DNA of 64,000 bases from Patescibacteria group bacterium (lineage in GTDB: Bacteria; Patescibacteriota; Microgenomatia; UBA1406): assembly GCA_041665145.1 (NCBI GenBank), contig JBAYJK010000001.1, positions 229,629 through 293,628 of the forward strand, written 5' to 3'. The position numbers and the translations under genes were made by a program. The notes below the pieces were generated by a model, which saw only the letters and a program-made list of their open reading frames with translations, did no database searches and had not been told where the DNA came from. Below, piece by piece: positions 42,469 through 57,310 of this stretch. Numbering within the stretch: the stretch's first letter is position 1; every line of letters starts with the position of its first letter.

Positions 42469-42513
42469 TGGAGAGGTGCCAGAGTGGTTGAACGGGCTAG
42501 TCTCGAAAACTAG
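42205..42513 (+). CDS. GIY-YIG nuclease-family small protein
   Basis: MFYYVYVLKSEKDHQLYVGKTKDLRKRFKEHN (GIY...YVG...R...H) and the YLKSG..RE motif. The ORF only terminates 44 nt inside the tRNA gene. Confidence 0.8.
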   Translation: MFYYVYVLKSEKDHQLYVGKTKDLRKRFKEHNDGRVLATKGRRPFVLVYYEAFSNTTDCSREELYLKSGIGRESLKHRLSNLDIINDNWRGARVVERASLEN

Positions 42514-42556
42514 TAAGGCCGCAAGGTCTTCGGGGGTTCGAATCCCCCCCTCTCCG
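42470..42556 (+). tRNA. tRNA-Ser (anticodon CGA), type II with long variable arm
   Basis: Acceptor GGAGAGG/CCTCTCC, anticodon stem CTAGT/ACTAG with loop CTCGAAA, variable arm TAAGGCCGCAAGGTCTTC and T-arm GGGGG-TTCGAAT-CCCCC, discriminator G. CCA is not encoded. Collinear with E. coli tRNA-Ser. Confidence 0.9.
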
Positions 42557-42714
42557 CATAAAGTCTTCGGTTGCTCCAAGACCCGTCTACTATGCTCGAT
42601 TAGCCCTGTGTGGCTTGCTAAAAAGGCGACGAAAAACGCAAGTATCCCGAACATAGCCTGTAATGTAGAAAATCGCCTAAATGACCCTCAAGGTATTTGC
42701 GCTCGGTTCTAAGC

Positions 42715-43392: not shown

Positions 43393-44733
43393 TTAAATTA
43401 AAAAGAGTTGCCTATCTGTTAGCCTAAATTTTGATGTCACTCCTGCCAATATCTTGATTCTTTCCTCAGGAGTTCCAAATTGGAGAACGTGGAGTAAATA
43501 TTCTTTGAGCATCTCAGTATGAGTTTCACTATATTCTCTCGGGCTTTGTTCGCCTGTATTGTGAGGGGTGATCTCAATTCGAGGAATATAATCACTATTT
43601 ACGTTTGCTTTAAAATGCTGCAATCGTTTTACTTCTACTTCAAACTCTTGCATAAGATAAGAGGTATTAAGTTTTATTTTTGGTAAATAACCAATGAGCT
43701 GTTTGATCAGTTCTTGCTCGGTAATATATGGTTCAGGACAATCGTACCTCTTGATTCTATTGCAGTGATAATAAATGTGTGAGTTTACGATGTTTGCTTT
43801 GGTTCTTCGATATTTTAGTTCAGCAGTGACGCTTCCACCGCATGATCCGCAAATGCAAATTTTCTTGAACGGAAACAGTTGTTTATTCCATTGTCTCGGT
43901 GCAACTTGGAGTTGAATTTGGACTCTTTCAAAGAGTGCTTTTGTAATAAGTGGTTCATATGTCCCTTTGTACCATATATTTCCGTACTGAAACTCTCCGT
44001 AGTAAAAAGCGTTTTGAAGAGCAACGTAGATCTTGCTCAACGGCATCTTGCATCCGTTTTTTGTAGTGAATCCAATATCGTCAAGCCATTTTTTCACCAT
44101 TCGTCCTGAGAATCCCTGATCCGCAACTTTATGAAAAATCTGTTTAATAACTGGTGCTCGTTCAGGATCAAGTTCAACCGTTGAGATTCTATTTACTTTC
44201 AATACATTTCGATAACCTATCGGTGCGACTCCTGGTCTAATTCCAATCTGGCATTTATTCCGAAGTCCTCGTTTAACATTAACACCTCTATTATCATTTT
44301 CCAGTTTTGCTTGTGAGCAAAGAATCATCAGTAAGAATTTCTCGTTGGGATTATCGGTAAACGATTGAGAGTAGGTTTTGATATGGATCAGTTTCCCTTG
44401 ATCCATCAGGTCTACAATTCGCCCCAAGTCTCCAGCATTTCGAGATAACCGATCAGGTGCCCATGTCAGAATACTGTTGTATCTTTCTTCAGTAACGCCA
44501 TGCAGAAGGTTGTTAAACTCTGGTCGTTGTCCTGATTCTTTGGCAGAGTGACTCTCAGTAATTGTTTCCGTAATATTGAGTTTCTCTCGCTTGGCAAGAA
44601 GTTGCATTTCTTTTAGTTGACCATCAATAGACATTGCTTGTCGCTCATCTGATTCGCTCGATTTACGGGCATAGAGGCAGTACTTTAGCCTGATAGTATC
44701 TTTCATCAGGTCACAAGGTACCGCAATAGTCAT
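43393..44733 (-). CDS. Large serine recombinase (resolvase/integrase family)
   Basis: N-terminal catalytic region CLYARKSSESDERQ..SIDGQ. The central recombinase domain and the Cys-rich zinc ribbon (CICGSCGG ... YYHCNR) are typical of large serine integrases. Confidence 0.85.
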   Translation of the reverse strand: MTIAVPCDLMKDTIRLKYCLYARKSSESDERQAMSIDGQLKEMQLLAKREKLNITETITESHSAKESGQRPEFNNLLHGVTEERYNSILTWAPDRLSRNAGDLGRIVDLMDQGKLIHIKTYSQSFTDNPNEKFLLMILCSQAKLENDNRGVNVKRGLRNKCQIGIRPGVAPIGYRNVLKVNRISTVELDPERAPVIKQIFHKVADQGFSGRMVKKWLDDIGFTTKNGCKMPLSKIYVALQNAFYYGEFQYGNIWYKGTYEPLITKALFERVQIQLQVAPRQWNKQLFPFKKICICGSCGGSVTAELKYRRTKANIVNSHIYYHCNRIKRYDCPEPYITEQELIKQLIGYLPKIKLNTSYLMQEFEVEVKRLQHFKANVNSDYIPRIEITPHNTGEQSPREYSETHTEMLKEYLLHVLQFGTPEERIKILAGVTSKFRLTDRQLFLI

Positions 44734-44800
44734 GCGAAGTCTAGATGCAAAATATCACGGAGGCCATTCATAATATTTGATTAGGTATAATCCTATTAGC

Positions 44801-45220
44801 ATGTATATACAACTCTGGCTGATAGCTGTTCTATTAGTTCTAGCTGTTTTGTTTTATAAATTCCACACAGGTATTGAATATATCGAAAACAATGTACGTT
44901 CCATGAAAAAGAGTCTTTTTTCCTGCGAACCTTTTGATCCCTCTGATTATCAGGATCTTTATGATGCGTTTAATGCTATGGAAGCGAACTATGTAAGGTT
45001 GAAACAAAGGTATTCCGCTGACAAGAAAAAAGTGTATGAGATAGCCCGAGACTGGCACAAGTACGTCGAATCTCTTCTTAAACTCAAAAATGCTAGCCAG
45101 CATCTATCTGTTGGTAGCAGTGACTATACTGGAGAAAATTTTCAAGAAGATACTAAAGAGCCCTACATAATAGAAGCGGAGATCCTTAAAAAATTTGAGA
45201 GTTTATTAGACAAAAGCTAA
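44801..45220 (+). CDS. Hypothetical membrane-anchored protein
   Basis: ATG 44801 gives MYIQLWLIAVLLVLAVLFYKF (one TM). No known domain. Confidence 0.4.
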   Translation: MYIQLWLIAVLLVLAVLFYKFHTGIEYIENNVRSMKKSLFSCEPFDPSDYQDLYDAFNAMEANYVRLKQRYSADKKKVYEIARDWHKYVESLLKLKNASQHLSVGSSDYTGENFQEDTKEPYIIEAEILKKFESLLDKS

Positions 45221-45238
45221 CTTGATTATGTGTTAGTG

Positions 45239-45805
45239 CTACCAATTCCAATATCCAATTCTTCCGTTACAGTCTGCAAATAGGCTGGCGACCTTATAGA
45301 AGTATGTGTTAAATCTCTCGCTATTATTCTTGACAAAATTAGTTATGTTTATATGAAAAGGAACTCCTGGTTCAATATTTTCGGTGTATTTGTAGTACCC
45401 CGTCGGGTAGCGATAATCACTATTAAGGGTAAATTTACATTTCACCCAATTTTCAGTCCCATTATTTGAAATAACTATCTGCATATCCTTGTAATTAACT
45501 GTTCCGTCAAGTGGTTCCGGAGTTGGCGAAGGCGTGTTTGTAGGCAGAGTTGTAGTTATATCTACACTCGAACCCCCCGGGTGAAACAGTCTAGCTACTA
45601 CCACCAAAGCAACTATGATTACAACAGTTCGTATAGCAAACGATTTACTGCTCATGTTGCTACTAATTCTTTTTGTTTCTGGAATATTTGTGGATTTATG
45701 TTCTTGTTCGTGTCTTACAGTTTTTCGATACTCAGCCTCCTCACGCAATTTAGTCCTATAAGCTTCCTCTTCTTTTAATCTGTTTTTTTCTTTTTCTGTC
45801 AACAT
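45239..45805 (-). CDS. Hypothetical single-pass membrane protein
   Basis: Charged N-terminal helix (EKEKNRLKEEEAYR), one TM, a PT-rich linker and a C-terminal beta-rich domain. Confidence 0.4.
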   Translation of the reverse strand: MLTEKEKNRLKEEEAYRTKLREEAEYRKTVRHEQEHKSTNIPETKRISSNMSSKSFAIRTVVIIVALVVVARLFHPGGSSVDITTTLPTNTPSPTPEPLDGTVNYKDMQIVISNNGTENWVKCKFTLNSDYRYPTGYYKYTENIEPGVPFHINITNFVKNNSERFNTYFYKVASLFADCNGRIGYWNW

Positions 45806-45807
45806 GG

Positions 45808-46077
45808 CTAGTTATTATATGCGTCAGCTATTTGCCATAAGTGGATCAAGAACCCTGGCAAAAAGAACATCATGTAACCGATAATTGTGCATATAAAAAT
45901 CAGTAAGCCTTTACCAACTTGACTCTTTACTAGTTGTCCAAGTCCAGGGATAAATAGCGAAAGCAGCGCGGGGAAACCGTGTTTCTGAGTTTGGGTAGCA
46001 ACTATTTGATTACTCATTTGCTCACGATATCGCTCTTCTTCTTCGATTCTGCGTTTTTGGGCTTCTGTTAGTGCCAT
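45808..46077 (-). CDS. Small two-TM membrane protein (TM2-domain-like)
   Basis: The charged N-terminus (EAQKRRIEEEERYR) followed by LSLFIPGLGQL...GKGLLIF...W.IADAY resembles TM2-domain small proteins. Confidence 0.45.
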   Translation of the reverse strand: MALTEAQKRRIEEEERYREQMSNQIVATQTQKHGFPALLSLFIPGLGQLVKSQVGKGLLIFICTIIGYMMFFLPGFLIHLWQIADAYNN

Positions 46078-46087
46078 CTTGACTATG

Positions 46088-46115
46088 ATTATACCGCTAA
46101 TTGTGTATACGTCAA
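46088..46115 (-). promoter_or_regulatory. Candidate sigma-70 promoter for the 46077 minus-strand genes
   Basis: On the minus strand: TTGACG (46115-46110), 16 nt, TATAAT (46093-46088). The predicted transcript start is only a few nt before ATG 46077. Confidence 0.4.
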
Positions 46116-46208
46116 GTCTTTATATAGATTGACATGTCACTCTATATACAACATAAATCTACTATTTGTAGGTTGTACTATCGTACTATAGGGAAGCACA
46201 ATATATAC

Positions 46209-46433
46209 ATGTTGAGCAAGTCCCGTTTTACAGAAATAGTTGGTCAAAATATTAAGAGGATAAGACAAGACAAGGGTTGGTCACAAGACAAATTGTCTGC
46301 CGAGTGTAAGTTTTACAGGACTTATATCAATCTAGTGGAAACCGCCAAAAGAACTCCTTCTTCATACACATTGCACAGGATTGCCGGTGCTCTCGGTGTT
46401 CGGATAGATAAACTATATCCCCTCGTCAAATAA
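46209..46433 (+). CDS. XRE-family helix-turn-helix transcriptional regulator
   Basis: ATG 46209. VGQNIKRIRQDKGWSQDKLSAEC..YRTYINLVE..KR.PS..TL..IA.ALGV is a classic HTH_3 pattern. Confidence 0.75.
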   Translation: MLSKSRFTEIVGQNIKRIRQDKGWSQDKLSAECKFYRTYINLVETAKRTPSSYTLHRIAGALGVRIDKLYPLVK

Positions 46434-47297
46434 AGGCACATGCAATTCTTGTTCCAAAGATCTTTTCACATATGTTAGCGAGTCTCCCTCAAAGCTAGGG
46501 GTAGTTTTCCAATCCAGCATAATTAAATTGTTGTGTACAAATTCAGTAAATAGCGGGTGATTATTGTTAATTGTTGTGATGAATAGACTCTTTTTATCAA
46601 TATAATCCATACTAAACGGGCTTAATGTCTGCTCGTTTTCATCGCCTGTTTTCTCAGAGTCAGCAAAAATACTCTTAAGATTTGTTAGACAGAGTAGGTC
46701 TGGCAAATCTACCATTCCATTAAGAAAAAAATTGAGTGTCAATACATTGTCAGCAATTGCAATAAGTGAATGTAAAGCTGAAGCAAACGCACGAAGTATT
46801 TGCTTGTAGGTTACGGGCTTCATGTAGACTTTAGAAAAAGTCATAAATTTACTGAGCGACTCGGATGAAAATGAACTCTTTTCTGTAAGAGTCTCTATAA
46901 GTTTCTCGTCACGGAAATACCTCAGCTCATTCCATAAAGAAGCACCTCGTAACACGGCTAACTCACTATCTCGGTCATACTTATTGAGTAAGTCAGCAGC
47001 CCATTTGTATGCGTCGTATGTATGCGCGTCTTGAAGTGTATTAAATGATAGTATTTGTTTTAGGTCTTGTTGGTTATACAAACTCCGTACGCTGTCAGCA
47101 GCAATATAAGGGTTTGAAGCTCTTAATGCGTCAGAAGTTTGCTCTTTGAGCTGTTTAATATTTAGGTACTGCAGTAAAACCGCTTCATATGGAGTAAAAA
47201 TCCCTTTTTCGGCTACTTTTGAAATGAGACTTTGTTGAATCGACACGATATTATTTCTTCCGCAAACTGTTAACTTTTTTTCTAAGTAAAACTTCAC
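46413..47297 (-). CDS. Hypothetical protein
   Basis: 294-aa ORF with no recognisable motif. Last gene of the minus-strand MTase operon. Confidence 0.4.
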   Translation of the reverse strand: MKFYLEKKLTVCGRNNIVSIQQSLISKVAEKGIFTPYEAVLLQYLNIKQLKEQTSDALRASNPYIAADSVRSLYNQQDLKQILSFNTLQDAHTYDAYKWAADLLNKYDRDSELAVLRGASLWNELRYFRDEKLIETLTEKSSFSSESLSKFMTFSKVYMKPVTYKQILRAFASALHSLIAIADNVLTLNFFLNGMVDLPDLLCLTNLKSIFADSEKTGDENEQTLSPFSMDYIDKKSLFITTINNNHPLFTEFVHNNLIMLDWKTTPSFEGDSLTYVKRSLEQELHVPLFDEGI

Positions 47298-47799
47298 TCA
47301 ATACCTCAGATTCTTTTTTCCTGATGACAACATGCTCAGCTTTCATACTGGCTATAAACAATTTAAGAATTAATTGAGCCTGTTTTTCGCCAATGTCACC
47401 CTGCAACACATGTGTCGCAAGCATTTCTTGGCCATCTTTAAAAGTTTCAGTGTTATAGAGTAGCGCTAGTAGTTCTCTCAGTTCTTCATTGCTCATATTT
47501 ATATTTCTACTATTAATATCTGGGTCTTTGTTGTTCAGCCAAAACATGATTGCAGTTAAGTTACCTTCATTCATAAGTTTAACAAGTTGGGTATACGCCA
47601 TGTCTGTAATATTTCTTTTACTTTCTTGAATGTTTTCGTAGGCTTGGCGTTTAAATTCGGGGTCTTCTGCAATCCAGCGGTAAAACGTCTTACGATCAAT
47701 TCCAACAGCATTGCATACTGACAAAATTGTGAAGTTTTTAGTAAGTCGCTCAAGCATTGTCCTTTTTGTCGTGCTCCTTTGTTCATCGGTCATGGGCAA
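47251..47799 (-). CDS. HTH-domain protein (phage small-terminase-like N-terminus)
   Basis: SVCNAVGIDRKTFYRWIAEDPEFK resembles the HTH at the N-terminus of phage TerS-like/regulatory proteins. Weak call. Confidence 0.4.
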   Translation of the reverse strand: MPMTDEQRSTTKRTMLERLTKNFTILSVCNAVGIDRKTFYRWIAEDPEFKRQAYENIQESKRNITDMAYTQLVKLMNEGNLTAIMFWLNNKDPDINSRNINMSNEELRELLALLYNTETFKDGQEMLATHVLQGDIGEKQAQLILKLFIASMKAEHVVIRKKESEVLSEVLLRKKVNSLRKK

Positions 47800-48571
47800 T
47801 TGTTTTAACTAGTAAATTTGGAAAGATGCTGTGAAATCTGTTGACTATAGTCTGACAATATACCGGTGAGATTTCGGTCATCACACATGTTCTCCTTGTC
47901 TGCTGACACGCTAACAAAGTAGTTCCTGAACCTCCAAATCCGTCCCACACAATATCTCCTATTTGAGTGCTGTTCAATATTAGATGGCGAATTAAAGCTA
48001 CTGGTTTAGTGGTTGGATGTAACTTGCTTTTGTTAGGTTTAGGAAAACAGAGAACTGACTTATCTTTGCTTTTGTAGAATTCGTGCTTTCCAAACCAACC
48101 ATACAAGATGAGCTCATGTTGAGGATTATAGTCAAGTCGCCCGACAACATTATGATTTTTAGCCCAAATAAGAAGCTGCGAGAATTTACCACCTGCTGTT
48201 TCCAGAGCTTCCTTAACACTCCAAATCATTTTGTCCGAGTTAAAGATGTAGACGCTATTGGGAAGTATGAGGTGTTTTCTTACATTTTTAAGCCAGGAGC
48301 AGGTAAAGAGGGAGTATTCTTGTCCTGATCGTTGTTGATCATTAACGATGTTGGTTTGATTGGAAAGCTCGGCAAATCCCTCTTTTGCTTTGACCGTATC
48401 ACTGCCATATGGAGGATCAGTGACTACACAGCTAATTCTTCTGTCGCCAAGCATTTGTTGAAGTAACAGACTGTCCTCAGCTTTTCCACAACCTAGCATA
48501 TGATTCCCTAATTGGTATATATCTCCTAAGTTAATTGAGCCTGGCTGGTTTTGTTCCTGTAAGTTGTTCAT
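47783..48571 (-). CDS. DNA methyltransferase (N6-adenine/N4-cytosine type, beta class)
   Basis: Motif IV VTDPPYG and motif I FGGSGTTLLACQQTRR.CVMTEI. Confidence 0.8.
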   Translation of the reverse strand: MNNLQEQNQPGSINLGDIYQLGNHMLGCGKAEDSLLLQQMLGDRRISCVVTDPPYGSDTVKAKEGFAELSNQTNIVNDQQRSGQEYSLFTCSWLKNVRKHLILPNSVYIFNSDKMIWSVKEALETAGGKFSQLLIWAKNHNVVGRLDYNPQHELILYGWFGKHEFYKSKDKSVLCFPKPNKSKLHPTTKPVALIRHLILNSTQIGDIVWDGFGGSGTTLLACQQTRRTCVMTEISPVYCQTIVNRFHSIFPNLLVKTIAHDR

Positions 48572-49805
48572 AACGTAGTAGGATGAGATCTACGAAGACG
48601 GGGTCGATCTCAACGAGTAATGCCCGTCTTTTAAGTTGCTCTGCAGCAATCAATTGACTACCGCTTCCTGCAAAACAATCAAGAATATAGTCATCGACTT
48701 TAGTACACCTTCTCATTGCTTTCTCGTAGAGGGGAGGGGGTTTCATTGTTGGGTGCTGATATTCGGTTGCGGGCAGGCGATCAACTAACCAGATATTCAA
48801 CATATCCATAATATCGTCAATCGCGCGGTTGCCTGATGATATTTCTTTGTTTTGTATTTCTGTAAGGTTTCGGACAGTATCATTAAGGAAGGGCTTTCCG
48901 CGAGTACCGTAAATGCAGTATTCCGTCATTTTGTTGAAAGCTGTCTTAGCGGTTACAGATTGGTTGTTTTTAATCCAGATACAGAGACGTTTGTTTTCAA
49001 TTTTAAAGTCTCTGAATAACTGCTGAGTGAGTCCTACATATTTTTCATCTGACCAATAAAACACGTGAGTGTCTGGAGAAGCAACTGAGAGAGCGTTCTT
49101 CAATGAGGCTTCTAAAAGTTGGCGTTGCTCATCTTCGGTCCGTTGATCTTTTTCCTGCCCACCATAATTACTTTTATTACCAACCCCTCTTGAATAGTTC
49201 AATCCAATCCCAAACGGAGGATCACTGTTTATAAACGAGACCTTATTGTTTTCTGCGAGATGCTTTAGCACCAAAGGATCCCCGTTATCCCCACAGACAA
49301 CTCTATGTGGGCCAAGTTGAAACATGTCTCCAACTTTTGATACAGGATTATGAGCAACTTCCTTAATGGCTTTATCAAGGTTGAAATGATCATCTTCTAC
49401 TCCCAGCTCGCTATCCCAATATTTACTAAGGTCAATATCGTCTAGACCTGCGCGAATTAGGTCTTCAGGAGCGTATGACTTGAGGATTTCCCAATCCCAA
49501 TCGCCAGAATTAGCGTTACTTCTCAAGTTATAGTCTTTAAACTCCTGTTCGGTTAGTTTCCTGTTAGGAACTCTCACTTCTATTTCTTCATCAGCTCTGC
49601 CAAGTTGCACGAGTACTTTTATTCGCTGGTTCCCGGCAAGGACGATATTGTCTGTGTCGATTGCAGGTATTTCAACGAGGTTATAAATAGTAAGACCTTT
49701 CACCAGAATCTTTTGTTGATTCTCGGTTATATACCTCGGGTTGTCTTTGTAAAGATGTAGATCCCTCACTCTTCTTTTTTCCGTATGCCAGATAAGTTTT
49801 TCCAT
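48531..49805 (-). CDS. ParB-like nuclease domain fused to DNA methyltransferase
   Basis: N-terminal ParB-like region (..DNPR...E.....L...L......P.I......LAGNQR). MTase motif IV NSDPPFG and motif I FAGSGSQLIAAEQLKRRALLVEIDP. Confidence 0.8.
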   Translation of the reverse strand: MEKLIWHTEKRRVRDLHLYKDNPRYITENQQKILVKGLTIYNLVEIPAIDTDNIVLAGNQRIKVLVQLGRADEEIEVRVPNRKLTEQEFKDYNLRSNANSGDWDWEILKSYAPEDLIRAGLDDIDLSKYWDSELGVEDDHFNLDKAIKEVAHNPVSKVGDMFQLGPHRVVCGDNGDPLVLKHLAENNKVSFINSDPPFGIGLNYSRGVGNKSNYGGQEKDQRTEDEQRQLLEASLKNALSVASPDTHVFYWSDEKYVGLTQQLFRDFKIENKRLCIWIKNNQSVTAKTAFNKMTEYCIYGTRGKPFLNDTVRNLTEIQNKEISSGNRAIDDIMDMLNIWLVDRLPATEYQHPTMKPPPLYEKAMRRCTKVDDYILDCFAGSGSQLIAAEQLKRRALLVEIDPVFVDLILLRYEQLTGTKPARLN

Positions 49806-49834
49806 TTTTAACGTAAAGAACTTTTAATTAGCAC

Positions 49835-49892
49835 AAAAAAAGCGAACCTTGACAAGCCTCATTGTATTGAGTTGCTTATCCTGAAGGTTCGC
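49835..49892 (-). terminator. Strong intrinsic-terminator-like hairpin with U-tract on the minus strand, between a promoter and the ParB-MTase start
   Basis: On the minus strand, the 9-bp arms GCGAACCTT/AAGGTTCGC have further internal pairing (GATAAGC/GCTTGTC, CTCA/TGAG). Seven U follow (A-run 49835-49841 on plus). Confidence 0.55.
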
Positions 49893-49928
49893 CTTATTGC
49901 ATTAAGGGTAAAACAATGAACCATGAAA

Positions 49929-49957
49929 AATATAAGCTATATTCTCCCGTTTGTCAA
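49929..49957 (-). promoter_or_regulatory. Candidate sigma-70 promoter upstream of the ParB-MTase operon
   Basis: On the minus strand: TTGACA (49957-49952), 17 nt, TATATT (49934-49929). Confidence 0.5.
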
Positions 49958-50073
49958 GAGAATATATTGTTGTGACGCTCTAAATCCGAAGTAAAGCTGA
50001 GAAAAGCAAAGAAAACCTAAGAGTTGTAGATATGCGGTTTTTGCATAACAAAGAAACTGTAAGGTTATGTGCG

Positions 50074-50700
50074 TTACTCGTTTTTTCTTATTAGTCCGCA
50101 GTACTTTCCTCTTATGTGGATTTGTGATCTTCGATAAAATTTTGGCTGGTATGCAGAATCAGGATTATTGGGCCTTAATTCTATTTGATCCTCGTGTTTA
50201 TACAACCTTTTCAGGTTTGCCTTTTCGTCAGGGTCATCCGAAATTATCGCTACGGCTATTTCTCCATTATTAACATCATTTTGCTGTCTTACAACGATAT
50301 AGTCATTATTCATGATTCCATCGCCGAGCATACTGTTTCCATCAACCTTTAAACAATAATATGGAGCATCTGTCCTGACCATTGTTATAGAAACTTCGAC
50401 AAAGTCTGGATCAGGCTCCTCGAAAACACTAATTCCATCACCTGCAGATATGACTCCAAGTACAGGCAGGTGGACGGACTTAGATTCTGATCTGTCATTA
50501 AGAGCAATAGAGCGGGGTGTGTTCGGCTTCTTAATAATAAAGCCCTTCAGTACCAGCGTGCGAAGCCGAAATTGTGCTGCTGCCGAGGTGGTGCCCATAA
50601 ATTCAGCCATTTCCCTAAGAGTGGGAGCGCTCCCATGCTCTGGCATGTATCTTTTGATAAAATCAAGTAACTCCTGCTGCTTTTTTGTCAAAATACCCAT
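50074..50700 (-). CDS. lexA: LexA-family repressor (winged-helix DNA-binding domain + S24 autopeptidase)
   Basis: N-terminus LTKKQQELLDFIKRY..EHG.APTLREMAEFMG. Candidate Ala-Gly cleavage site in VISAGDG. S24 Ser (VDGNSM) and Lys (ANLKRL). Confidence 0.85.
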   Translation of the reverse strand: MGILTKKQQELLDFIKRYMPEHGSAPTLREMAEFMGTTSAAAQFRLRTLVLKGFIIKKPNTPRSIALNDRSESKSVHLPVLGVISAGDGISVFEEPDPDFVEVSITMVRTDAPYYCLKVDGNSMLGDGIMNNDYIVVRQQNDVNNGEIAVAIISDDPDEKANLKRLYKHEDQIELRPNNPDSAYQPKFYRRSQIHIRGKYCGLIRKNE

Positions 50701-50728
50701 TGAATTTTCAGAAGGAAAATGATATAAT
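50700..50728 (+). promoter_or_regulatory. Candidate promoter for the DUF2188/CBASS-like operon
   Basis: TTGAAT (50700-50705), 17 nt, TATAAT (50723-50728), with an extended -10 TG at 50720-50721. The -35 abuts the lexA start codon. Confidence 0.55.
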
Positions 50729-50744
50729 ATATATATGGTTAAGG

Positions 50745-50763
50745 ATATTGACTATACCAATAT
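50745..50763. promoter_or_regulatory. Palindrome ATATTG-N7-CAATAT, candidate shared operator
   Basis: Perfect 6-bp arms at 50745-50750 and 50758-50763, lying between the two divergent -10 elements. Confidence 0.4.
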
Positions 50764-50790
50764 TATAAGTTATCGATGCTAAGATGTCAA
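50762..50790 (-). promoter_or_regulatory. Consensus sigma-70 promoter for the LexA-family gene
   Basis: On the minus strand: TTGACA (50790-50785), exactly 17 nt, TATAAT (50767-50762). The -35 overlaps the DUF2188 ATG (50784-50786). Confidence 0.6.
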
Positions 50791-51023
50791 ACTACCATGT
50801 GGTAAGGAATTCTACGGGCGGTTGGGATGCTAAAAAGGAAAAATCAGAAAGGTCCAGTGGACATTTTAATACCCAGAGAGAAGCAGAATTGGAAGCAAAG
50901 CAGTTTGCGGCCAATAACGGCGGTGGCGAGGTAAAAATCCATGGATTGAATGGACAGATCCGGGATAGCGATACTGTTTCACCGGGCCACGATCCTAATC
51001 CTCCTGAAGATAAAAAGCACTAA
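50784..51023 (+). CDS. DUF2188-family small protein
   Basis: YHVV.N..GGW..KKE.SERSSG.F.TQREAE.EAKQFA.NNGGGEV.IHG.NGQIR matches the DUF2188 pattern as I remember it. It ends 4 nt before the NTase ATG. Confidence 0.65.
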   Translation: MSNYHVVRNSTGGWDAKKEKSERSSGHFNTQREAELEAKQFAANNGGGEVKIHGLNGQIRDSDTVSPGHDPNPPEDKKH

Positions 51024-51027
51024 AAAC

Positions 51028-51972
51028 ATGCAAATAACAGACACAGGACTCTATACTTTTTTGGGTGACCGAGTATTCCTTGACAGTGATACTTTGGAAG
51101 TCTATCGAAATCAGGCTAACAACCTCAAGAAGAAACTTCAGGACTACATTAATGAGAACCCTGAGTTCCAGTTGGTAAAAATGCTTAACTCGGGCTCTGT
51201 CGCCAAGGGAACTGCCTTGAAAACAATTAATGACATGGATGTTGCTGTCTATGTGCGCCCCGGCAAGATTCCAGATCATAAAGTGAATAAAATGTTGGAA
51301 TATTTGCGTGATGCATTGATCTCTGTGTATGGTGATACCATGACACCTGATCAATTTTCTATTGGTACGCATTGTGTGCGAGTTGGCTTTAAGGGTACTG
51401 GTTTGGATGTTGAAGTGGTCCCTGTTATCCCAAACGGGAAACCCGATGATCGTGGAGATGTTCTAAACAATGACAATGGCGAATGGGTAGAAACCTCAAT
51501 TCCTCTACATTTGGAGTTTATCCGAGAGCGTAAAAATCTATATCCGCAGTACGCGGAAATTGTTCGAATGACAAAGTGGTGGAGAAATCAGCGAGGTTTC
51601 AAGTTCAAGTCCTTTCTTATTGAGCTTTTATGGTGTCACATGGTTGACGCGCAATTGGTTTTGGAATCCCGCATAGAAGCTTTTGGGAAATTCCTACGAT
51701 ATATCCTTTCAACTCAACTTCAAGAGAAAATCGTTTTTACGGACTATTATCGAAGAGCCGAGGTTAAAGGTGATGATTCTCCAATTCAAGTCTATGATCC
51801 GATAAATCCCAAAAATAACGTTGGTATAACGATCACAGAGGCAGATAGACAGACCATAGTAAAAGAAGCCCAGTTAGCATTTGATGCTTTGGCAATGGCT
51901 TGTTCTGCATATACGAAAGAAAATGCAGTCGCAAATTGGCAGAAGATATTAGGATCAGGATTCAATCCGTAA
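51028..51972 (+). CDS. CD-NTase-like (cGAS/DncV-like, SMODS-type) nucleotidyltransferase
   Basis: NSGSVAKGTALKTINDMDVAVYV (G-S ... DxD) plus the third acidic strand GLDVEVVPV. A helical C-terminal half has a KWWR motif. First enzymatic gene of the operon. Confidence 0.7.
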   Translation: MQITDTGLYTFLGDRVFLDSDTLEVYRNQANNLKKKLQDYINENPEFQLVKMLNSGSVAKGTALKTINDMDVAVYVRPGKIPDHKVNKMLEYLRDALISVYGDTMTPDQFSIGTHCVRVGFKGTGLDVEVVPVIPNGKPDDRGDVLNNDNGEWVETSIPLHLEFIRERKNLYPQYAEIVRMTKWWRNQRGFKFKSFLIELLWCHMVDAQLVLESRIEAFGKFLRYILSTQLQEKIVFTDYYRRAEVKGDDSPIQVYDPINPKNNVGITITEADRQTIVKEAQLAFDALAMACSAYTKENAVANWQKILGSGFNP

Positions 51973-51977
51973 TTAAT

Positions 51978-52496
51978 ATGAGCTATCAAACAAGTACAGT
52001 CACAAGATCGAACACTATTACACACACCGATGTGCGGAATGTTATTTGGAAAATTAAGAGTGACATGTTTCAACTTAGGCTATTTCACGACATGTTTGAT
52101 GCCGAGTACGAAGAAGATATGTCCTACGATCTTTTTCAGTGGACTTATCGTGGATATGCTAACGCCATAAAGTTTCAATTCTATAACCCAACAACTTACT
52201 TGGCCCACTGCGAGATTAAATATGACATAATTCGTGGACAAATTGCTGGATCGGATGATGATGCGGGGTCAATTCCATTTTTAAATCTTAAAGGGACGTC
52301 CTTTCGAGTAGTCATAACCCCCAGCACTTCTTGGAATGGTTTGTCTGCTGAAGATAAACAAGCTTTTTACGATACGTTAAAGAGACAGTGGGGATCGTCT
52401 AATTTACAGCTCCAATATGCTGGTGGGTCTTGGTTACAAGACAAGACGTATTCAAGCAATAGCTTTGGCGCAAATAGATCAATTTATAAAATATGA
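51978..52496 (+). CDS. Bacterial HORMA-like protein (Cap7-like), tentative
   Basis: 173 aa, between the NTase and the AAA+ gene. T.T.TDVRNV..KIKSD....L, SDDDAG, W.GLSAEDKQAFYDTL..QW and QDKTYSS resemble CBASS HORMA proteins from memory. Not verifiable here. Confidence 0.45.
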   Translation: MSYQTSTVTRSNTITHTDVRNVIWKIKSDMFQLRLFHDMFDAEYEEDMSYDLFQWTYRGYANAIKFQFYNPTTYLAHCEIKYDIIRGQIAGSDDDAGSIPFLNLKGTSFRVVITPSTSWNGLSAEDKQAFYDTLKRQWGSSNLQLQYAGGSWLQDKTYSSNSFGANRSIYKI

Positions 52497-53707
52497 AAAT
52501 CACAATTTTGCAAAACGGGAAACAAATAAGAGACATTGAAGTTGGTATCGAGTTGATAATATCCGAAGCTGAAAGAAAAGGAAGTTCTGACCCAATTAAG
52601 GCTACAGTCGTAGAGATAGAACATATTCTGGAACAGGAAAGCATTTCTGTAAAAGAGGAAGAGCTTGCAAAGTTGAACTCAATTATTGCAGAATCGGTAA
52701 CAACAGGAAACTTTCCTGATTCTCTGGAATTACAGGCAAAAACTATGAGAAAAATACCATTTTTTAGTAAAAAAACAGAAACTATTAATCCCGCTTTACA
52801 ACAAGCTGGAAAGTTTTTTGAGGGAGTCATCTCCTATCCCAACGATGAATCAAAAGAAATATACGACAGCCTTATTGGCCTAGATGATATTAAAAAAAGA
52901 TTAACAAAAGAGGCTTCGCTATTGGTTGCGAGTGACAATTTGGAAAAGTGGAGTAAAAAGTACAACAAGAAAGTCCTTCTTGCCTGTAAAGCATTTGAAA
53001 GACGTACCCCATTAATAGTTTTTGCTGGAGATGTTGGTACGGGGAAAACAGCACTTGCAGAATCTTTTGGAAATGAGATCGCGCAACAGCTGAAATCTAA
53101 TGTGCACTTACTTAGGGTAAGTGTCCAAACTCGAGGTACAGGTCTTGTGGGCGAAATGACTCAACTCATCAACAAAGCGTTTAATGAAGCTAAAAGAGTT
53201 GCCGAGGCAGTTAATTCACCTATAATTCTTTTGGTTGATGAAGCTGATACATTAGCCCAGTCAAGGGAAGAATCGCAAATGCATCATGAGGATAAAGCAG
53301 GCGTTAATGCGTTGATACAAGGTATTGACCATGTCAGAGAAGCGCACGCTCCTATTTTAGTTGTATTCTGCACAAATAGAATCCAAGCAATTGACCCTGC
53401 AATAATGCGCAGAGCCGCAATTACGCATGAATTTTCTCGCCCGAGCCAAGAACAGTTGGGTATGGTATTTAAACAATATTTTGGAGATCTTGGTTTAACA
53501 GCTGAGCAATTGTCACAACTCATAAATGCAGCATCACCAAACTCTGGTCGCACATACGGTTTCACCTACTCAGATATTACTAATAGAGTAATTCCAACAA
53601 CTATATTGAAAGCCTATCCTGATAGGGCTTTAGAGTTTAATGACATACTAGAAACTGTTCAATCCTTACAACCAACTCCTCCATTTCAAGAAGGGAGACG
53701 ATCATGA
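52493..53707 (+). CDS. AAA+ ATPase (TRIP13/Pch2-like, Cap6-like)
   Basis: Walker A FAGDVGTGKTALAE, Walker B ILLVDEADTL, sensor-1 VVFCTNR and Arg region PAIMRRAA. ATGA overlap with the upstream gene. Confidence 0.7.
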   Translation: MKITILQNGKQIRDIEVGIELIISEAERKGSSDPIKATVVEIEHILEQESISVKEEELAKLNSIIAESVTTGNFPDSLELQAKTMRKIPFFSKKTETINPALQQAGKFFEGVISYPNDESKEIYDSLIGLDDIKKRLTKEASLLVASDNLEKWSKKYNKKVLLACKAFERRTPLIVFAGDVGTGKTALAESFGNEIAQQLKSNVHLLRVSVQTRGTGLVGEMTQLINKAFNEAKRVAEAVNSPIILLVDEADTLAQSREESQMHHEDKAGVNALIQGIDHVREAHAPILVVFCTNRIQAIDPAIMRRAAITHEFSRPSQEQLGMVFKQYFGDLGLTAEQLSQLINAASPNSGRTYGFTYSDITNRVIPTTILKAYPDRALEFNDILETVQSLQPTPPFQEGRRS

Positions 53708-55164
53708 CTGATTCGGCTTCACTATTAGGAAAGCAAGCCATGGGAGGATTGTATGGCGAAGGTGGATATAAATTTCAGGATGCTTATATTGTAAGCAAAA
53801 TACCAGACTGGATTTGCGACGCTAATTTTATACAAATTCTTAAAGAAGGTTCTGGTGATGTTGATATTGCATTTAATAAAGAAGATAAGCTTTTTAGAAT
53901 TTATACTCAAATAAAAGGTTACTCAATAACTCAATCAGAATTCAAAACCATTCTGAAAGAATTTAAGGTTAAGGACGCTTCTACCCCAAATACATACCAG
54001 AGATTTGTACTTGCAAGCACTGGTCTGAATGATGGAGTTACTAAACTAAAGACAGCGCTAGAAAGAATCAGAGGGTCAAAGGATTACTTTACACCACAAG
54101 ATCAAGTATCTGCTGATACATTGGCAAGCATTACTGCTATTGCTAAGGAATTGGGTGCTGATGCAGATATAAACTTTATTTTAGAAAAGGTTCATTTTGA
54201 CTTTGTATGGCCAGGATTTACTCAGCTCGAACAAGTTATTCGTCTTTTCTGTGGAGGGATGCAAAATGTTCAGAGCTACCAAGAAAAAATAAAATATTTT
54301 AGGCATATTTTTCACCCATTGTATTCATACATTGTGGATAGTTCTGGCAAAACTATTAACAGAGCTGATTTGGAAGCTAAAATGACCGAGTTTGTAGAAA
54401 ACTACAGACTTCAGATGGAAGAGCAAGGATTTACGCTCAGAATGTACCACTGGGAATCTACACCATACGAACTAAAACTTGAGTATGACGAAGTTTTAGA
54501 CTGGTCAAAACATTTTGAAAAAAATTCAAGAAAGATAGCTCCGCCAGAAGTATGGCAAAAAGAATTATTACCAGAGCTTTCTGATTTAGAAAAAAGAGTG
54601 CGAGAAAGCGGAACAGTTCGACTTATAAAGTTTGAGGGTTCAGCCTGTTTATCGGCTGGGGTTGCTCTTGGATGGGCATTCCCTGAGGTCGGCGAATACG
54701 TGATTGAACTGCTACCAAGATTAGGCCAGAAAACCGAACCATGGAGGACTGATACTTCGACACAGAGAGTCTTCAATTTAACCTCAGAAGACTGTGAAAT
54801 GTATGCTGACGGAAGTGGATTGGCTGTTAAATTCAATATCGTGGCCGATGTTACAACTGATTTAAATAAATATATCTCAGAGTCAGGAAGTCGATTTAAA
54901 GCAAGTCTTCAATTAACACCTGAAAGTGGAGTTGGCGAAACCATTACTAAAGAGTCAGCTATTAGTTATGCACGAAGTGCAAAGAGACTTATTAGAGAAG
55001 CGGTAACGAAATACAGCGTAGACAAGATATCTCTGTTTTTTGCAGGTCCACTGGGTATTGCCATCTTTTTAGGGCAATTATTGAATGCCATGCCGGAAGT
55101 CCAGTGCTACGAACAGAAACAAGATAGAGGTTACCAACTTTCTTGTTTAATACCTAGAACTTAA
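53704..55164 (+). CDS. Cap4-like effector: PD-(D/E)xK-type nuclease N-domain + SAVED-like C-domain
   Basis: The N-terminus GGYKFQDAY ... EGSGDVDIAF ... YTQIKG has a DUF4297/Cap4-like layout. The C-terminal ~250 aa, ending SLFFAGPLGIAIFLGQLLN, resemble SAVED. ATGA overlap upstream. Confidence 0.6.
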   Translation: MTDSASLLGKQAMGGLYGEGGYKFQDAYIVSKIPDWICDANFIQILKEGSGDVDIAFNKEDKLFRIYTQIKGYSITQSEFKTILKEFKVKDASTPNTYQRFVLASTGLNDGVTKLKTALERIRGSKDYFTPQDQVSADTLASITAIAKELGADADINFILEKVHFDFVWPGFTQLEQVIRLFCGGMQNVQSYQEKIKYFRHIFHPLYSYIVDSSGKTINRADLEAKMTEFVENYRLQMEEQGFTLRMYHWESTPYELKLEYDEVLDWSKHFEKNSRKIAPPEVWQKELLPELSDLEKRVRESGTVRLIKFEGSACLSAGVALGWAFPEVGEYVIELLPRLGQKTEPWRTDTSTQRVFNLTSEDCEMYADGSGLAVKFNIVADVTTDLNKYISESGSRFKASLQLTPESGVGETITKESAISYARSAKRLIREAVTKYSVDKISLFFAGPLGIAIFLGQLLNAMPEVQCYEQKQDRGYQLSCLIPRT

Positions 55165-55172
55165 TAAAAGCT

Positions 55173-56843
55173 GTGCAGTACTTGCATGATGAACAACACT
55201 ATATCGACCGCTACGACCTTCGTACAATTGAAGAATGTCTCGATAATGTAAAAATATTTCAGGAAATTTATCAGAAAAGTCTAAACAGTAAACAACTAAA
55301 TGATATTTCCCAAGAAGATAAACTGCACGATGTGAATCTGATGCTTCACCGCATTCTTTTTGTTATCAAAGGCAAGAGATATGAAAAGAAACAAGAAACT
55401 ATCGAGAAGTGGATGGAAGAAGATAAATTAAAACAAGATAAGCAAGACTACACTCCAGTCCCAGAAACAGTCATCTGTCCTCTCTGTAGCGGCTCCATGT
55501 TTTTTAAATCTTCAAAACATCTTGATTATTCATACGATAGCCCGATCATGCGCATGATGTTTCTTTTTAAGTGTAGTAAATGCAAAAAACAGCAGTGGGT
55601 TTATGACGACGGTGAGATTCGCGTGTCAAAGCCTGAACTTTGTCCAAAATGCAAAAATGAAATAGACATGAAAGTTACGCGAAAAGGCAAAGTTATCAGT
55701 TGGAAACATAAATGCAAGACGTGCGGCTATACCAAAACTGAAATTGATGATCTTGCTAAACATGACGAAGAACACAAACAATGGGAGAGAGAACAAAAGA
55801 AAAAGGAAGAAGAAGGCAAAAAACTTCTTGAAAAATACCGGGAAGAGTTTTGTCTAAACGAAAAAGATGGGATAGAGTACGTAGAAACACTTGGAGCAAT
55901 CGAGGTAGGTCATGAAGTGTATGAAGAAGAAAAACAGAAACACGATGACAAAGCCTATCAAACGGCAGTAAATCTAAAAAGGCTCACGGTTCTTGAAATC
56001 GAGAAGCTGCTGACCGAAAAACTAGAAAAGGAAAAGTACGTTAAATTCACATTGGATAAACCAGGCATGGGAAGATTTCTTACGATACCCTTTAACGTTT
56101 TAGATGTTAATTCAACAAGAAATCCTAACATAAGTGAAACCACCCTTAAAAAACTCGTCAAAGACACATTAGAAGATACTAACTGGCGATTGATGAGTGA
56201 TGGAATTCGCTATCGTCTTGGGTATCTCTCTGGCACTCTGAAAGCATTTGAGCAAGAAGAAGATTTACTTGCATTGGTTGGAGCCAAAAAAGAGGTAAAA
56301 GCTTCGAAATCAAAGATTGATCCAGAAAAACGCGCTAAATATATGAGCCATAACCTTGTTCAACTCGCAAGAATGTCTGGAGAGTTTGATGGCGTTGAAG
56401 AAACACGGAAACGAAGGCTTGAGAAAGAGCCGGAAGGATTCTTCCTCGACGACGGTAAAGGTCCGTATTCTTGTGGGATTTGTGGTGAAGGAGCCTATGG
56501 AAAAGACATTTGGTGGACATTAAATGGCTTATGGTGCAGAAATTGCTGGAACAATATCAAAGCTAGCGTTATCCCTCCACTAAAACATAGATACGACAAG
56601 GATAATATTTACTTTCAAGATTGGCAGATAGAATCTGATTTCGGAATACATCCTGCAACTAGAAGGAAATTAAAACGGGAAGGATTATTGAAAGGCAGAG
56701 CGTTAAAGAATGAAAAAGGCCAAATTTACTATACTATTTATCTAGTCTCAGAAAACCAAGAGTTTCTGAAAAAATACCCAAGAAAAGGTAAGAAAACTCG
56801 AGAGACAATTGCTGGCAAAGATTACAAACCTATTGAATTATGA
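55173..56843 (+). CDS. Multi-zinc-ribbon protein of unknown function
   Basis: 556 aa, GTG start. Cys pairs CPLC..CSKC, CPKC..CKTC and CGIC..CRNC, plus a Lys/Glu-rich coiled segment. No enzymatic motif recognised. Confidence 0.5.
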   Translation: MQYLHDEQHYIDRYDLRTIEECLDNVKIFQEIYQKSLNSKQLNDISQEDKLHDVNLMLHRILFVIKGKRYEKKQETIEKWMEEDKLKQDKQDYTPVPETVICPLCSGSMFFKSSKHLDYSYDSPIMRMMFLFKCSKCKKQQWVYDDGEIRVSKPELCPKCKNEIDMKVTRKGKVISWKHKCKTCGYTKTEIDDLAKHDEEHKQWEREQKKKEEEGKKLLEKYREEFCLNEKDGIEYVETLGAIEVGHEVYEEEKQKHDDKAYQTAVNLKRLTVLEIEKLLTEKLEKEKYVKFTLDKPGMGRFLTIPFNVLDVNSTRNPNISETTLKKLVKDTLEDTNWRLMSDGIRYRLGYLSGTLKAFEQEEDLLALVGAKKEVKASKSKIDPEKRAKYMSHNLVQLARMSGEFDGVEETRKRRLEKEPEGFFLDDGKGPYSCGICGEGAYGKDIWWTLNGLWCRNCWNNIKASVIPPLKHRYDKDNIYFQDWQIESDFGIHPATRRKLKREGLLKGRALKNEKGQIYYTIYLVSENQEFLKKYPRKGKKTRETIAGKDYKPIEL

Positions 56844-57310
56844 TAAACAAGAATCAGAAATTAAAAATAACTCTCGATAGCTGTATTTTATTTGATTATC
56901 TTAATCCACATAGAAAAAATCACGTAAAAGCAAAGAAAGTTATTGAAGATAATCGTTACGAATTATATATTACAGAAAGTGTTCTTAAAGAGATAAGAAT
57001 TGATACTCAATTGGAAGAAGTCAAACGCCTTATTAGTTCGAATGTGCTAATAGTGTTGAAAGAGCCTGGTATGGGAATATCAATTCCGGTATCAATACCA
57101 ATGGATCTTTCTCATATTTCAGCTAAAAGAGATGCTTCTATCGCTTTACATCTCAAAAAGAGACCTGGTTTAAAAAAACACAAAGTCTTAAGAGATTTCT
57201 TAATAGCAGAAGCTCATCAACGAAATAAAAATGATTACTTGTTAACAACCAATACAAAAGATTTTATTGACAATACTGATATGATTATTAAATCATATGA
57301 AAATTTATAA
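56840..57310 (+). CDS. PIN-domain nuclease-like protein
   Basis: Acidic residues at canonical PIN positions (KITLDSCILFD; ITESVLKE; DFLIAEA; LLTTNTKDF). ATGA overlap with the upstream gene. Confidence 0.6.
   Translation: MINKNQKLKITLDSCILFDYLNPHRKNHVKAKKVIEDNRYELYITESVLKEIRIDTQLEEVKRLISSNVLIVLKEPGMGISIPVSIPMDLSHISAKRDASIALHLKKRPGLKKHKVLRDFLIAEAHQRNKNDYLLTTNTKDFIDNTDMIIKSYENL

Follow-up and report, generated by a model that had tools for sequence, protein, structure and literature searches.

Within a 64,000-nucleotide stretch of a Patescibacteria metagenome-assembled genome (MAG), hereafter referred to as the window (contig JBAYJK010000001.1, positions 229,629 to 293,628 of the forward strand; all positions below are those of the window), a gene for a LexA-type repressor (lexA; 50074..50700, minus strand; 208 amino acids) lies opposite an operon that encodes a cyclic-oligonucleotide-based anti-phage signalling system (CBASS) and whose first cistron encodes a small protein of the DUF2188 family (50784..51023, plus strand; 79 amino acids). 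The two genes are separated by an 83-bp spacer with a GC content of 24%. Because abortive-infection systems such as CBASS are dangerous to the host, how they stay silent is an active question. An earlier note on this DNA had proposed that a single self-cleaving repressor may gate both its own gene and the defence operon, through mirrored promoters and one shared palindrome. Here we present comparative evidence suggesting that lexA and the DUF2188 gene form a conserved regulatory unit ahead of exchangeable defence genes, and that a site other than the palindrome is the better candidate operator.

The repressor combines a LexA winged helix-turn-helix (HTH) domain (PF01726, 3.4e-16) with an S24 autoprotease domain (PF00717, 9.1e-25), has a full-length score of 163 bits against the NCBIfam lexA equivalog model TIGR00498 (curated cutoff, 110.95) and is annotated as LexA by NCBI. 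An alignment of 21 homologs shows no variation at Ala86-Gly87, Ser123 and Lys164, which correspond to A84-G85, S119 and K156 of E. coli LexA, the cleavage site and the catalytic dyad. We found no XRE-type HTH and no M78/ImmA-IrrE-type metallopeptidase in the repressor or adjoining it; WYL, STAS and GHKL domains are absent from it, no PADLOC model matches it, and the window contains neither a second LexA/S24 gene nor recA. Judged by its domains and its intact Ala-Gly and Ser/Lys residues, the gene encodes a bona fide LexA-family S24 autoprotease repressor, and the identity that the earlier note had given it stands.

On the other side of the spacer, the plus-strand operon continues beyond DUF2188 with a cGAS/DncV-like nucleotidyltransferase (CD-NTase; 51028..51972; 314 amino acids; PF18144 SMODS; PADLOC cyclase PDLC00808, E = 1e-104), a HORMA protein (51978..52496; ~172 amino acids; PF18138 bacHORMA_1; PADLOC HORMA), a TRIP13-like AAA+ ATPase (52493..53707; 404 amino acids; PADLOC TRIP13 PDLC00914, E = 5e-117; PF00004) and a Cap4-like nuclease-SAVED effector (53704..55164; 486 amino acids; PF18145 SAVED; PADLOC endonuclease effector PDLC00744, E = 3e-103) whose match to PF14130 (Cap4_nuclease) is sub-threshold, at 23.6 bits against a gathering score of 26.2. 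The presence of a CD-NTase, a HORMA protein, a TRIP13-like ATPase and a nuclease-SAVED effector in one operon defines a type III CBASS, so that the earlier designation of these genes as CBASS holds and can be made more specific. Two further, tightly packed genes (55173..57310) encode a 556-residue zinc-ribbon protein and a 156-residue protein, neither of which has a Pfam match above the gathering score or any PADLOC, NCBIfam or PHROG match. Genes of the operon overlap or are separated by gaps of at most 8 nt throughout.

Pairing of lexA with DUF2188 and exchange of the defence genes

We gathered the surroundings of LexA homologs from exact-sequence look-ups, one species-representative genome scan, one metagenome scan and DUF2188 look-ups. 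We count 16 distinct Patescibacteria loci in which LexA and DUF2188 form a pair, divergent in 13, where the identity of LexA to that of the window ranges from 72% down to 36%, and co-directional in the other three. What follows DUF2188 changes from locus to locus (L numbers are our locus handles): a type III CBASS in the window, TIR-SLATT-TIR in L022, a TIR gene and a truncated open reading frame at the contig end in L112, a CD-NTase with a four-transmembrane (4TM) effector in L032 and L026, a CD-NTase with a 2TM/Cap15 effector in L113, a SAVED effector and a CD-NTase in L034, an HNH-SAVED effector and a CD-NTase with an AGS-C domain in L036, and, in L033, a candidate system consisting of a PDC-M48B/LmuA-like protein with a metallo-β-lactamase (MBL) fold and a PD-(D/E)XK nuclease. 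In the co-directional loci lexA and DUF2188 precede a 1TM effector, a CD-NTase and an E2 protein (L116), a CD-NTase, a HORMA protein and an AAA+ ATPase (L124), or a CD-NTase and a 2TM effector (L134). Over the 16 loci the cargo thus comprises CBASS of types I, II-like and III, TIR-SLATT-TIR and the MBL/PD-(D/E)XK candidate system. In L116 and L124 LexA is only 28% identical to that of the window and DUF2188 is 63-66% identical. The pair thus persists in either gene order and in both LexA lineages although the cargo differs, which places DUF2188 in the regulator module and not in CBASS; this accounts for a first cistron that the earlier note had left unexplained. The regulator gene, moreover, lies at the promoter end of many unrelated defence operons, the arrangement by which Cap-type immune controllers are recognized.

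More distant Patescibacteria homologs of the repressor (34-45% identity) have similar surroundings. Among the proteins encoded just upstream of them, 11 of 20 match PADLOC models (E < 1e-5), the matches that face lexA being CD-NTases, a SAVED effector, an OLD/Gabija-like ATPase, PDC-S39, PDC-M36A, PDC-M48B and a caspase-like protein; many of these lexA genes are then followed by methyltransferases and serine recombinases, and one MAG carries two LexA paralogs (L006 and L016).

We made three further observations on gene content. A cassette of XRE, lexA, DUF2188, CD-NTase, HORMA and AAA+ genes occurs between two different chromosomal flanks, purine-synthesis genes in one case and ATP-synthase genes in the other (L121/L124 versus L122/L123/L125). 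Some copies of the L124-type cassette have an insertion of a Y1 (IS200-like) transposase gene after the AAA+ gene. A stand-alone HNH protein of 74-76 residues is encoded by the first gene opposite lexA in L037 (5658-5882, before DUF2188) and in L004 (5645-5875, before the CD-NTase).

Predicted face-to-face promoters in the spacer

The predicted lexA promoter (50762..50790, minus strand) consists of TTGACA (50790-50785) and TATAAT (50767-50762) separated by 17 nt, a match to the consensus at 12 of 12 positions that has no equal in the 13 kb scanned. Facing it, the predicted promoter of the DUF2188-CBASS operon (50700..50728, plus strand) consists of TTGAAT (50700-50705), a 17-nt spacer and TATAAT (50723-50728), with a TG at 50720-50721 that makes an extended -10 element. 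The -35 element of lexA (50785-50790) overlaps the DUF2188 ATG (50784-50786) by 2 nt and lies inside DUF2188 codons 1-3, and that of the DUF2188 operon shares 1 nt with the lexA start codon (50698-50700). Transcription begins about 7 nt after the -10 element in established promoter geometry; with start positions placed accordingly, 7 nt past each -10 element, the predicted starts are at ~50735 (plus strand) and ~50755 (minus strand) and the transcripts would overlap by ~21 nt. Both promoters, the overlap of each -35 element with the opposite start codon and the crossing of the predicted starts, put at roughly 20 nt, had been described in the earlier note, and all of them are borne out.

Promoter-like sites are not enriched in the region as a whole, there being 25 of them compared with 33.6 +/- 5.9 in shuffled sequences. 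We aligned the intergenic regions of 13 loci from the close LexA clade, the window among them. The lexA promoter is a perfect TTGACA-N17-TATAAT in all 13, and on the opposing strand TTGnnT-N16/17-TGATAYAnT, its -35 element laid over the lexA start codon, is likewise kept in 13 of 13. The two -10 boxes are separated by 29-42 bp across these loci, while the promoter spacers vary freely; with the -10 boxes at such distances the promoters are face-to-face and the footprints of their open complexes must collide. That both predicted promoters are above chance is strongly supported by this conservation, and in the sense of being strictly conserved the mirrored pair is real.

The lexA -35 hexamer is encoded in DUF2188 codons 1-3 (ATG TCA AAC, Met-Ser-Asn; 50784-50792), as it is at the homologous sites of the other DUF2188-linked loci in the alignment. 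In both co-directional loci that were read at the start of the gene (L116 and L124), DUF2188 begins Met-Ala-Asn. The occurrence of Met-Ser-Asn in divergent and Met-Ala-Asn in co-directional loci suggests a dual constraint, from coding and from the promoter, in the divergent arrangement. Two members of the clade, L028/L035 and L030, lack DUF2188 but retain the face-to-face promoters together with a GTTAA-N10-(T/C)TAAC dyad of the kind described below, and here the opposing promoter aims at a gene for a ClpP-like protease ~240 bp away. We also note, at 49929-49966 on the minus strand, a near-consensus promoter, TTGACA-N17-TATATT (11 of 12 positions), within the 269 bp that separate lexA from the first methyltransferase gene behind it. 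This promoter is embedded in an inverted repeat with a 12-bp stem, TATATTCTCTTG-ACAAA-CGGGAGAATATA, which could be the lexA terminator, another regulator's operator for the methyltransferase operon, or both.

A candidate operator between the promoters

The palindrome to which the earlier note had assigned the role of shared operator, ATATTG-N7-CAATAT (50745..50763), is present. At least one perfect palindrome with two 6-bp arms and a gap of 0-12 nt arises, however, in 57% of dinucleotide-preserving shuffles of the 83-bp spacer, so that such a site is expected at chance level, and none of the 12 relatives has the palindrome at the homologous position. The note had suggested looking for further copies; there is no second one in the window, even with one mismatch allowed. 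We rejected the palindrome as the best operator candidate because it is at chance level and is not conserved, and it is a different, overlapping dyad that is conserved in the relatives.

That dyad has the family form GTTAA-N9-11-TTAAC, and its positional homolog in the window is the candidate LexA operator GTTAAGGATATTGACTATAC (50738..50757), of which one half-site is perfect (GTTAA, 50738-50742) and the partner half-site has two mismatches. It sits between the two -10 boxes and covers both predicted starts. Within the alignment at least 11 of the 13 loci share CCTTAAC, preceded at a distance of 9-11 nt by a GTTA(A) partner, and six loci have a third half-site, (A/C/T)TAAC, one helical turn further on. 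Perfect matches to GTTAA-N9-11-TTAAC number 13 in the 1.04 Mb of DNA collected; nine of these, from seven distinct loci, fall at the homologous position, ~55 nt ahead of the lexA ATG, and four lie elsewhere. Neither the family dyad nor the palindrome has another copy in the window. As the palindrome, which is specific to the window, overlaps the conserved dyad by 13 bp, we regard the operator zone as spanning 50738-50763 and, of the two sites in it, prefer the dyad.

Three LexA proteins, those of the window, L022 and L032, have Phe45 in the putative recognition helix, and in the same three loci GTTAA in the upstream half-site is replaced by a sequence with an all-A/T tail (GTATA, GTTAT and ATTAT). 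The half-site of L115 is also degenerate (ATTAA), and its LexA lacks Phe45. The association of Phe45 with an altered half-site could reflect co-variation of protein and site, or just shared descent.

In L009-L020 and many metagenome loci, which belong to the more distant LexA clade (34-37% identity), a different promoter region is conserved ~60 nt ahead of lexA; it reads CTTGACA..AGTCATAAAAAAGTAATAAATTAATAATAG and contains AGTnATAAA-like direct repeats with an 11-bp period. A Patescibacteria LexA motif is cited in the literature as a case of direct repeats, and the AGTnATAAA-like repeats may correspond to that motif.

The DUF2188 protein

DUF2188 of the window scores 71.5 bits against PF09954 (gathering cutoff, 22), matches the PADLOC candidate PDC-S16 (E = 7.5e-23) as well as phrog_3220, and has more than 900 close homologs with an invariant core, GGGEV-IHG-G-IRDSDTV. 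Its AlphaFold model (predicted local distance difference test score, pLDDT, 85) has the topology beta1-beta2-beta3-alpha-beta4-beta5, a small beta-sheet-plus-helix fold whose partial AP2-like match is too weak to use; we found no PDB sequence match and no significant PDB fold match. A Foldseek comparison with BFVD matched the model to those of phage DUF1508 (YegP-like) proteins (E = 8.6e-3, TM 0.65), a likeness that is not supported at the level of sequence profiles, where hhalign gave DUF2188 and E. coli YegP a probability of 0.1. Dimers of DUF1508 have been likened to the PC4/Whirly single-strand binders. That DUF2188 itself binds nucleic acid or modulates repressor cleavage would be a guess on our part.

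Earlier work has noted this widespread family next to CBASS, Thoeris and CapH/CapP loci, and it can provide the first gene of CapH/CapP operons. On a Methylocaldum plasmid a gene for an HTH-M78 fusion is followed by DUF2188 and then by Vsr, Dcm and a GIY-YIG nuclease, in what resembles a restriction-modification cassette, and on a Gordonia plasmid DUF2188 stands ahead of a DUF1883-TIR protein. As the pairs with LexA (S24) and the HTH-M78 case show, DUF2188 accompanies protease-coupled repressors of two unrelated peptidase types. In L126-L130 a DUF2188 gene whose product is 63% identical to that of the window occurs without lexA, directly after a type I restriction-modification system and before a gene for an HTH-SocA/Panacea protein, which links DUF2188 to defence islands even where no protease-coupled repressor adjoins it.

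The genomic island

lexA and the CBASS genes lie on a ~14-kb genomic island (43393-57310) that has a serine recombinase and a GC content of 0.35-0.41, compared with 0.42-0.49 in the flanks. Behind lexA and co-directional with it, the backbone of the island (43393..49805, minus strand) encodes two ParB/N6_N4 DNA methyltransferases (48531-49805 and 47783-48571), a protein with a terminase-small-subunit-like HTH, identified through weak matches (47251-47799), and a large serine recombinase (43393-44733), together with genes without an assigned function; there are no structural genes in this backbone of recombinase, methyltransferases and TerS-like HTH protein. A tRNA-Ser(CGA) gene predicted by ARAGORN (42470..42557, plus strand) lies ~0.8 kb beyond the recombinase gene and is a possible boundary of the island. 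A search for att-like direct repeats at the presumed ends of the island returned none, just 11-12-nt matches of a size expected by chance. A similar backbone is found behind the LexA homolog of L022.

Two other proteins of the island are worth recording. On the opposite strand within the backbone (46134-46433, plus strand) is a gene for a 99-residue XRE-type HTH protein with weak similarity to phage RstR-type repressors, which may be a second regulator of the island. The 556-residue multi-zinc-ribbon protein encoded after the CBASS genes (55173-56843, plus strand) recurs after a different CBASS in L032 (2341-3939; 46% identity), and the gene for another homolog adjoins lexA in L040 (6635-7705; 34% identity); its gene in the window may be part of the backbone of the island and not of the cargo.

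Discussion

We consider it probable that lexA and DUF2188 constitute a conserved regulatory head for an interchangeable slot of anti-phage cargo, with LexA repressing both promoters and its RecA-triggered self-cleavage relieving that repression. The proposal that one repressor gates its own gene as well as the defence operon finds strong comparative support in the occurrence of the LexA-DUF2188 head in front of many unrelated cargos. In the switch that we propose, two face-to-face promoters would fire across the 83-bp spacer, one with a perfect consensus for lexA and a weaker, extended -10 promoter for DUF2188 and CBASS, and because the 5' ends of the transcripts would overlap, RNA polymerase could not occupy both at once. 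A LexA dimer bound to the dyad between the -10 boxes, in the window a degenerate copy within 50738-50763, would cover both starts and repress lexA together with the defence operon. RecA, activated by DNA damage or by single-stranded DNA generated by a phage, would then trigger self-cleavage of LexA at Ala86-Gly87 and so de-repress DUF2188 and CBASS, and the consensus lexA promoter, in competition with the extended -10 promoter, would restore repression quickly. DUF2188 accompanies the regulator whatever the cargo. The binding of LexA to the DNA, its repression of the promoters, the trigger by RecA and the part played by DUF2188 are steps of this scheme that we infer.

Several observations weigh against such a switch, or at least against its details. 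The aligned loci are kin, and part of their conservation could be due to shared ancestry and not to constraint. The dyad of the window is not distinguishable by its motif score, as it is one of 132 sites with at most two mismatches in 64 kb, and its assignment therefore rests on positional homology; the spacing of the half-sites, 9-11 nt among the relatives, is unusual for the site of a rigid dimer. Lastly, the lexA genes of L028/L035 and L030 face the gene for a ClpP-like protease and not DUF2188.

If a prophage remnant or phage-satellite-like island were the source of the locus, the repressor would be a CI-type immunity repressor, the promoters a PRM/PR-like switch, DUF2188 a Cro-, Xis-, antirepressor- or Hex-like early gene, and the defence genes passengers in a cargo hotspot. 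The lexA side of the island, with its serine recombinase, ParB-type methyltransferases and terminase-small-subunit-like HTH protein, would suit such an origin, as would the size of the island, the type IV secretion system (T4SS) genes that adjoin L026, the ArdC gene that adjoins L116 and the location of L134 on a predicted viral contig. There is also a reported precedent in Hex of phage 434, a small protein that is co-encoded with an S24 repressor and modulates its RecA-mediated cleavage, and the small fold modelled for DUF2188, with its weak AP2-like match, would be in keeping with a protein of that kind. Yet capsid, tail, replication and lysis genes are absent after DUF2188 in every locus, where only defence genes are found, the LexA clade has no relative in 2.9 million IMG/VR contigs, and DUF2188 is found as well after CapH/CapP-type regulators and after restriction-modification systems in surroundings that lack integrases. 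We think this origin unlikely, and note that a repressor of a satellite or prophage would still be gating the defence operon. We regard it as somewhat more unlikely again that the repressor is the housekeeping SOS repressor of the host, with CBASS adjacent to it by accident or as one member of a genome-wide SOS regulon. It does score as a LexA equivalog and is annotated as such, Patescibacteria genomes are small, the longest contig here being 0.92 Mb, and may carry a single lexA, the window holds no other LexA/S24 gene, and there are reports, in general terms, of defence genes within LexA regulons. Against this stand the position of the gene on a low-GC island with a serine recombinase, beside a tRNA gene; relatives that adjoin ever-changing defence cargo, methyltransferases, recombinases, T4SS genes or ArdC; the MAG with two such paralogs; the presence of one cassette in two chromosomal contexts; and the lack of another copy of either candidate site in the window. 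The two roles are not fully exclusive, in that an island-borne LexA could also serve as the SOS repressor of the cell.

Least supported, and in our view quite improbable, is that LexA acts through the palindrome at 50745-50763 and not through the dyad. The palindrome is a perfect dyad with 6-bp arms whose centre falls where the two transcripts would cross, in the window the family dyad is degenerate so that the operator may have drifted, and the three LexA proteins with Phe45 are the same three whose half-site has an all-A/T tail, although L115 is degenerate without Phe45. Beyond its chance-level occurrence in an AT-rich spacer and its absence from all 12 relatives, however, one arm of the palindrome lies between the half-sites of the conserved dyad and the other runs into the -10 box.

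Taken together, the comparative sequence data suggest that the LexA-DUF2188 unit ahead of differing defence systems is a previously unreported DNA-damage-gated controller of bacterial immunity. If so, a LexA-type controller consisting of a single protein would tie bacterial immunity straight into the classical RecA/LexA pathway and, for type III CBASS, would place a transcriptional gate on top of the post-translational control exerted by HORMA and TRIP13. It would also give the DUF2188 family a defined genomic role and show how uncultivated Patescibacteria with reduced genomes organise and exchange defence cassettes, with the strictly conserved pair of face-to-face promoters serving as a compact, portable switch. 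Going further, and only tentatively, it is possible that LexA-type S24 repressors with DUF2188 make up a fourth family of self-contained, DNA-damage-gated immune-operon controllers, next to CapW/BrxR, CapH+CapP and CapK+CapS, the three recognised so far; that in reduced Patescibacteria genomes mobile defence islands have largely appropriated the LexA lineage for use as a master switch; and that DUF2188 is an obligate, cargo-independent partner of S24 and M78 repressors that could, for example, sense single-stranded nucleic acid or modulate repressor cleavage.

Our search of the literature, the coverage of which is incomplete, found no paper on a LexA- or S24-type regulator dedicated to CBASS or to defence islands; defence genes are noted in general terms as members of LexA regulons. 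The 2026 paper on CapK/CapS, in the part of it accessible to us, names CapW/BrxR and CapH+CapP as the earlier families of regulators, with CapK+CapS as the newest, and that part makes no mention of LexA, S24 or SOS. A yegP (DUF1508) gene comes after capK-capS in 57 cases. PADLOC treats DUF2188 as a defence candidate that stands alone, PDC-S16, whereas in all 16 paired loci, the window included, it invariably takes the first or second place, with a LexA-type repressor on one side and variable cargo on the other.

The proposed switch shares features with several known systems. Its repressor has the full architecture of canonical LexA, including the Ala-Gly site and the Ser/Lys dyad, and the overlap of the candidate operator with lexA's own promoter implies autoregulation, as in canonical LexA; unlike the latter, it is island-borne and paired with DUF2188 and variable defence cargo, it has a single candidate site in 64 kb with no SOS repair genes in the neighbourhood, and the LexA boxes given in the literature are unlike its candidate motif, GTTAA-N9-11-TTAAC. 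As with lambda CI, 434 cI with Hex, and SetR of SXT, a self-cleaving S24 repressor sits at a switch of divergent or overlapping promoters on an integrative element, accompanied by a small partner gene, but here the DNA-binding domain is a LexA winged HTH and not a CI-type HTH, and the opposing operon encodes defence rather than lytic or transfer functions. CapW/BrxR and CapK+CapS are local, DNA-damage-responsive repressors that head many unrelated immune operons, as the proposed switch would be; it has no WYL, STAS or GHKL domain, however, and so does not have the wHTH-WYL-WCX architecture, and self-cleavage would take the place of ligand binding or phosphorylation.

The closest parallel is with CapH+CapP, an HTH repressor and a metallopeptidase activated by single-stranded DNA that control CBASS and other immune operons (Lau et al. 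2022). In both systems the repressor gene lies upstream of and opposite diverse defence operons, de-repression comes about through proteolysis of the repressor after DNA damage (as we propose here), and operons can begin with DUF2188, as some of those with CapH/CapP do. In the LexA-DUF2188 unit, by contrast, a single protein combines a LexA winged HTH with an S24 serine autoprotease, with no M78 peptidase and no XRE-type HTH, and the sensor of damage would be RecA on single-stranded DNA and not the peptidase itself. We infer that the LexA-type repressor may be a functional counterpart of CapH+CapP contained in one polypeptide.

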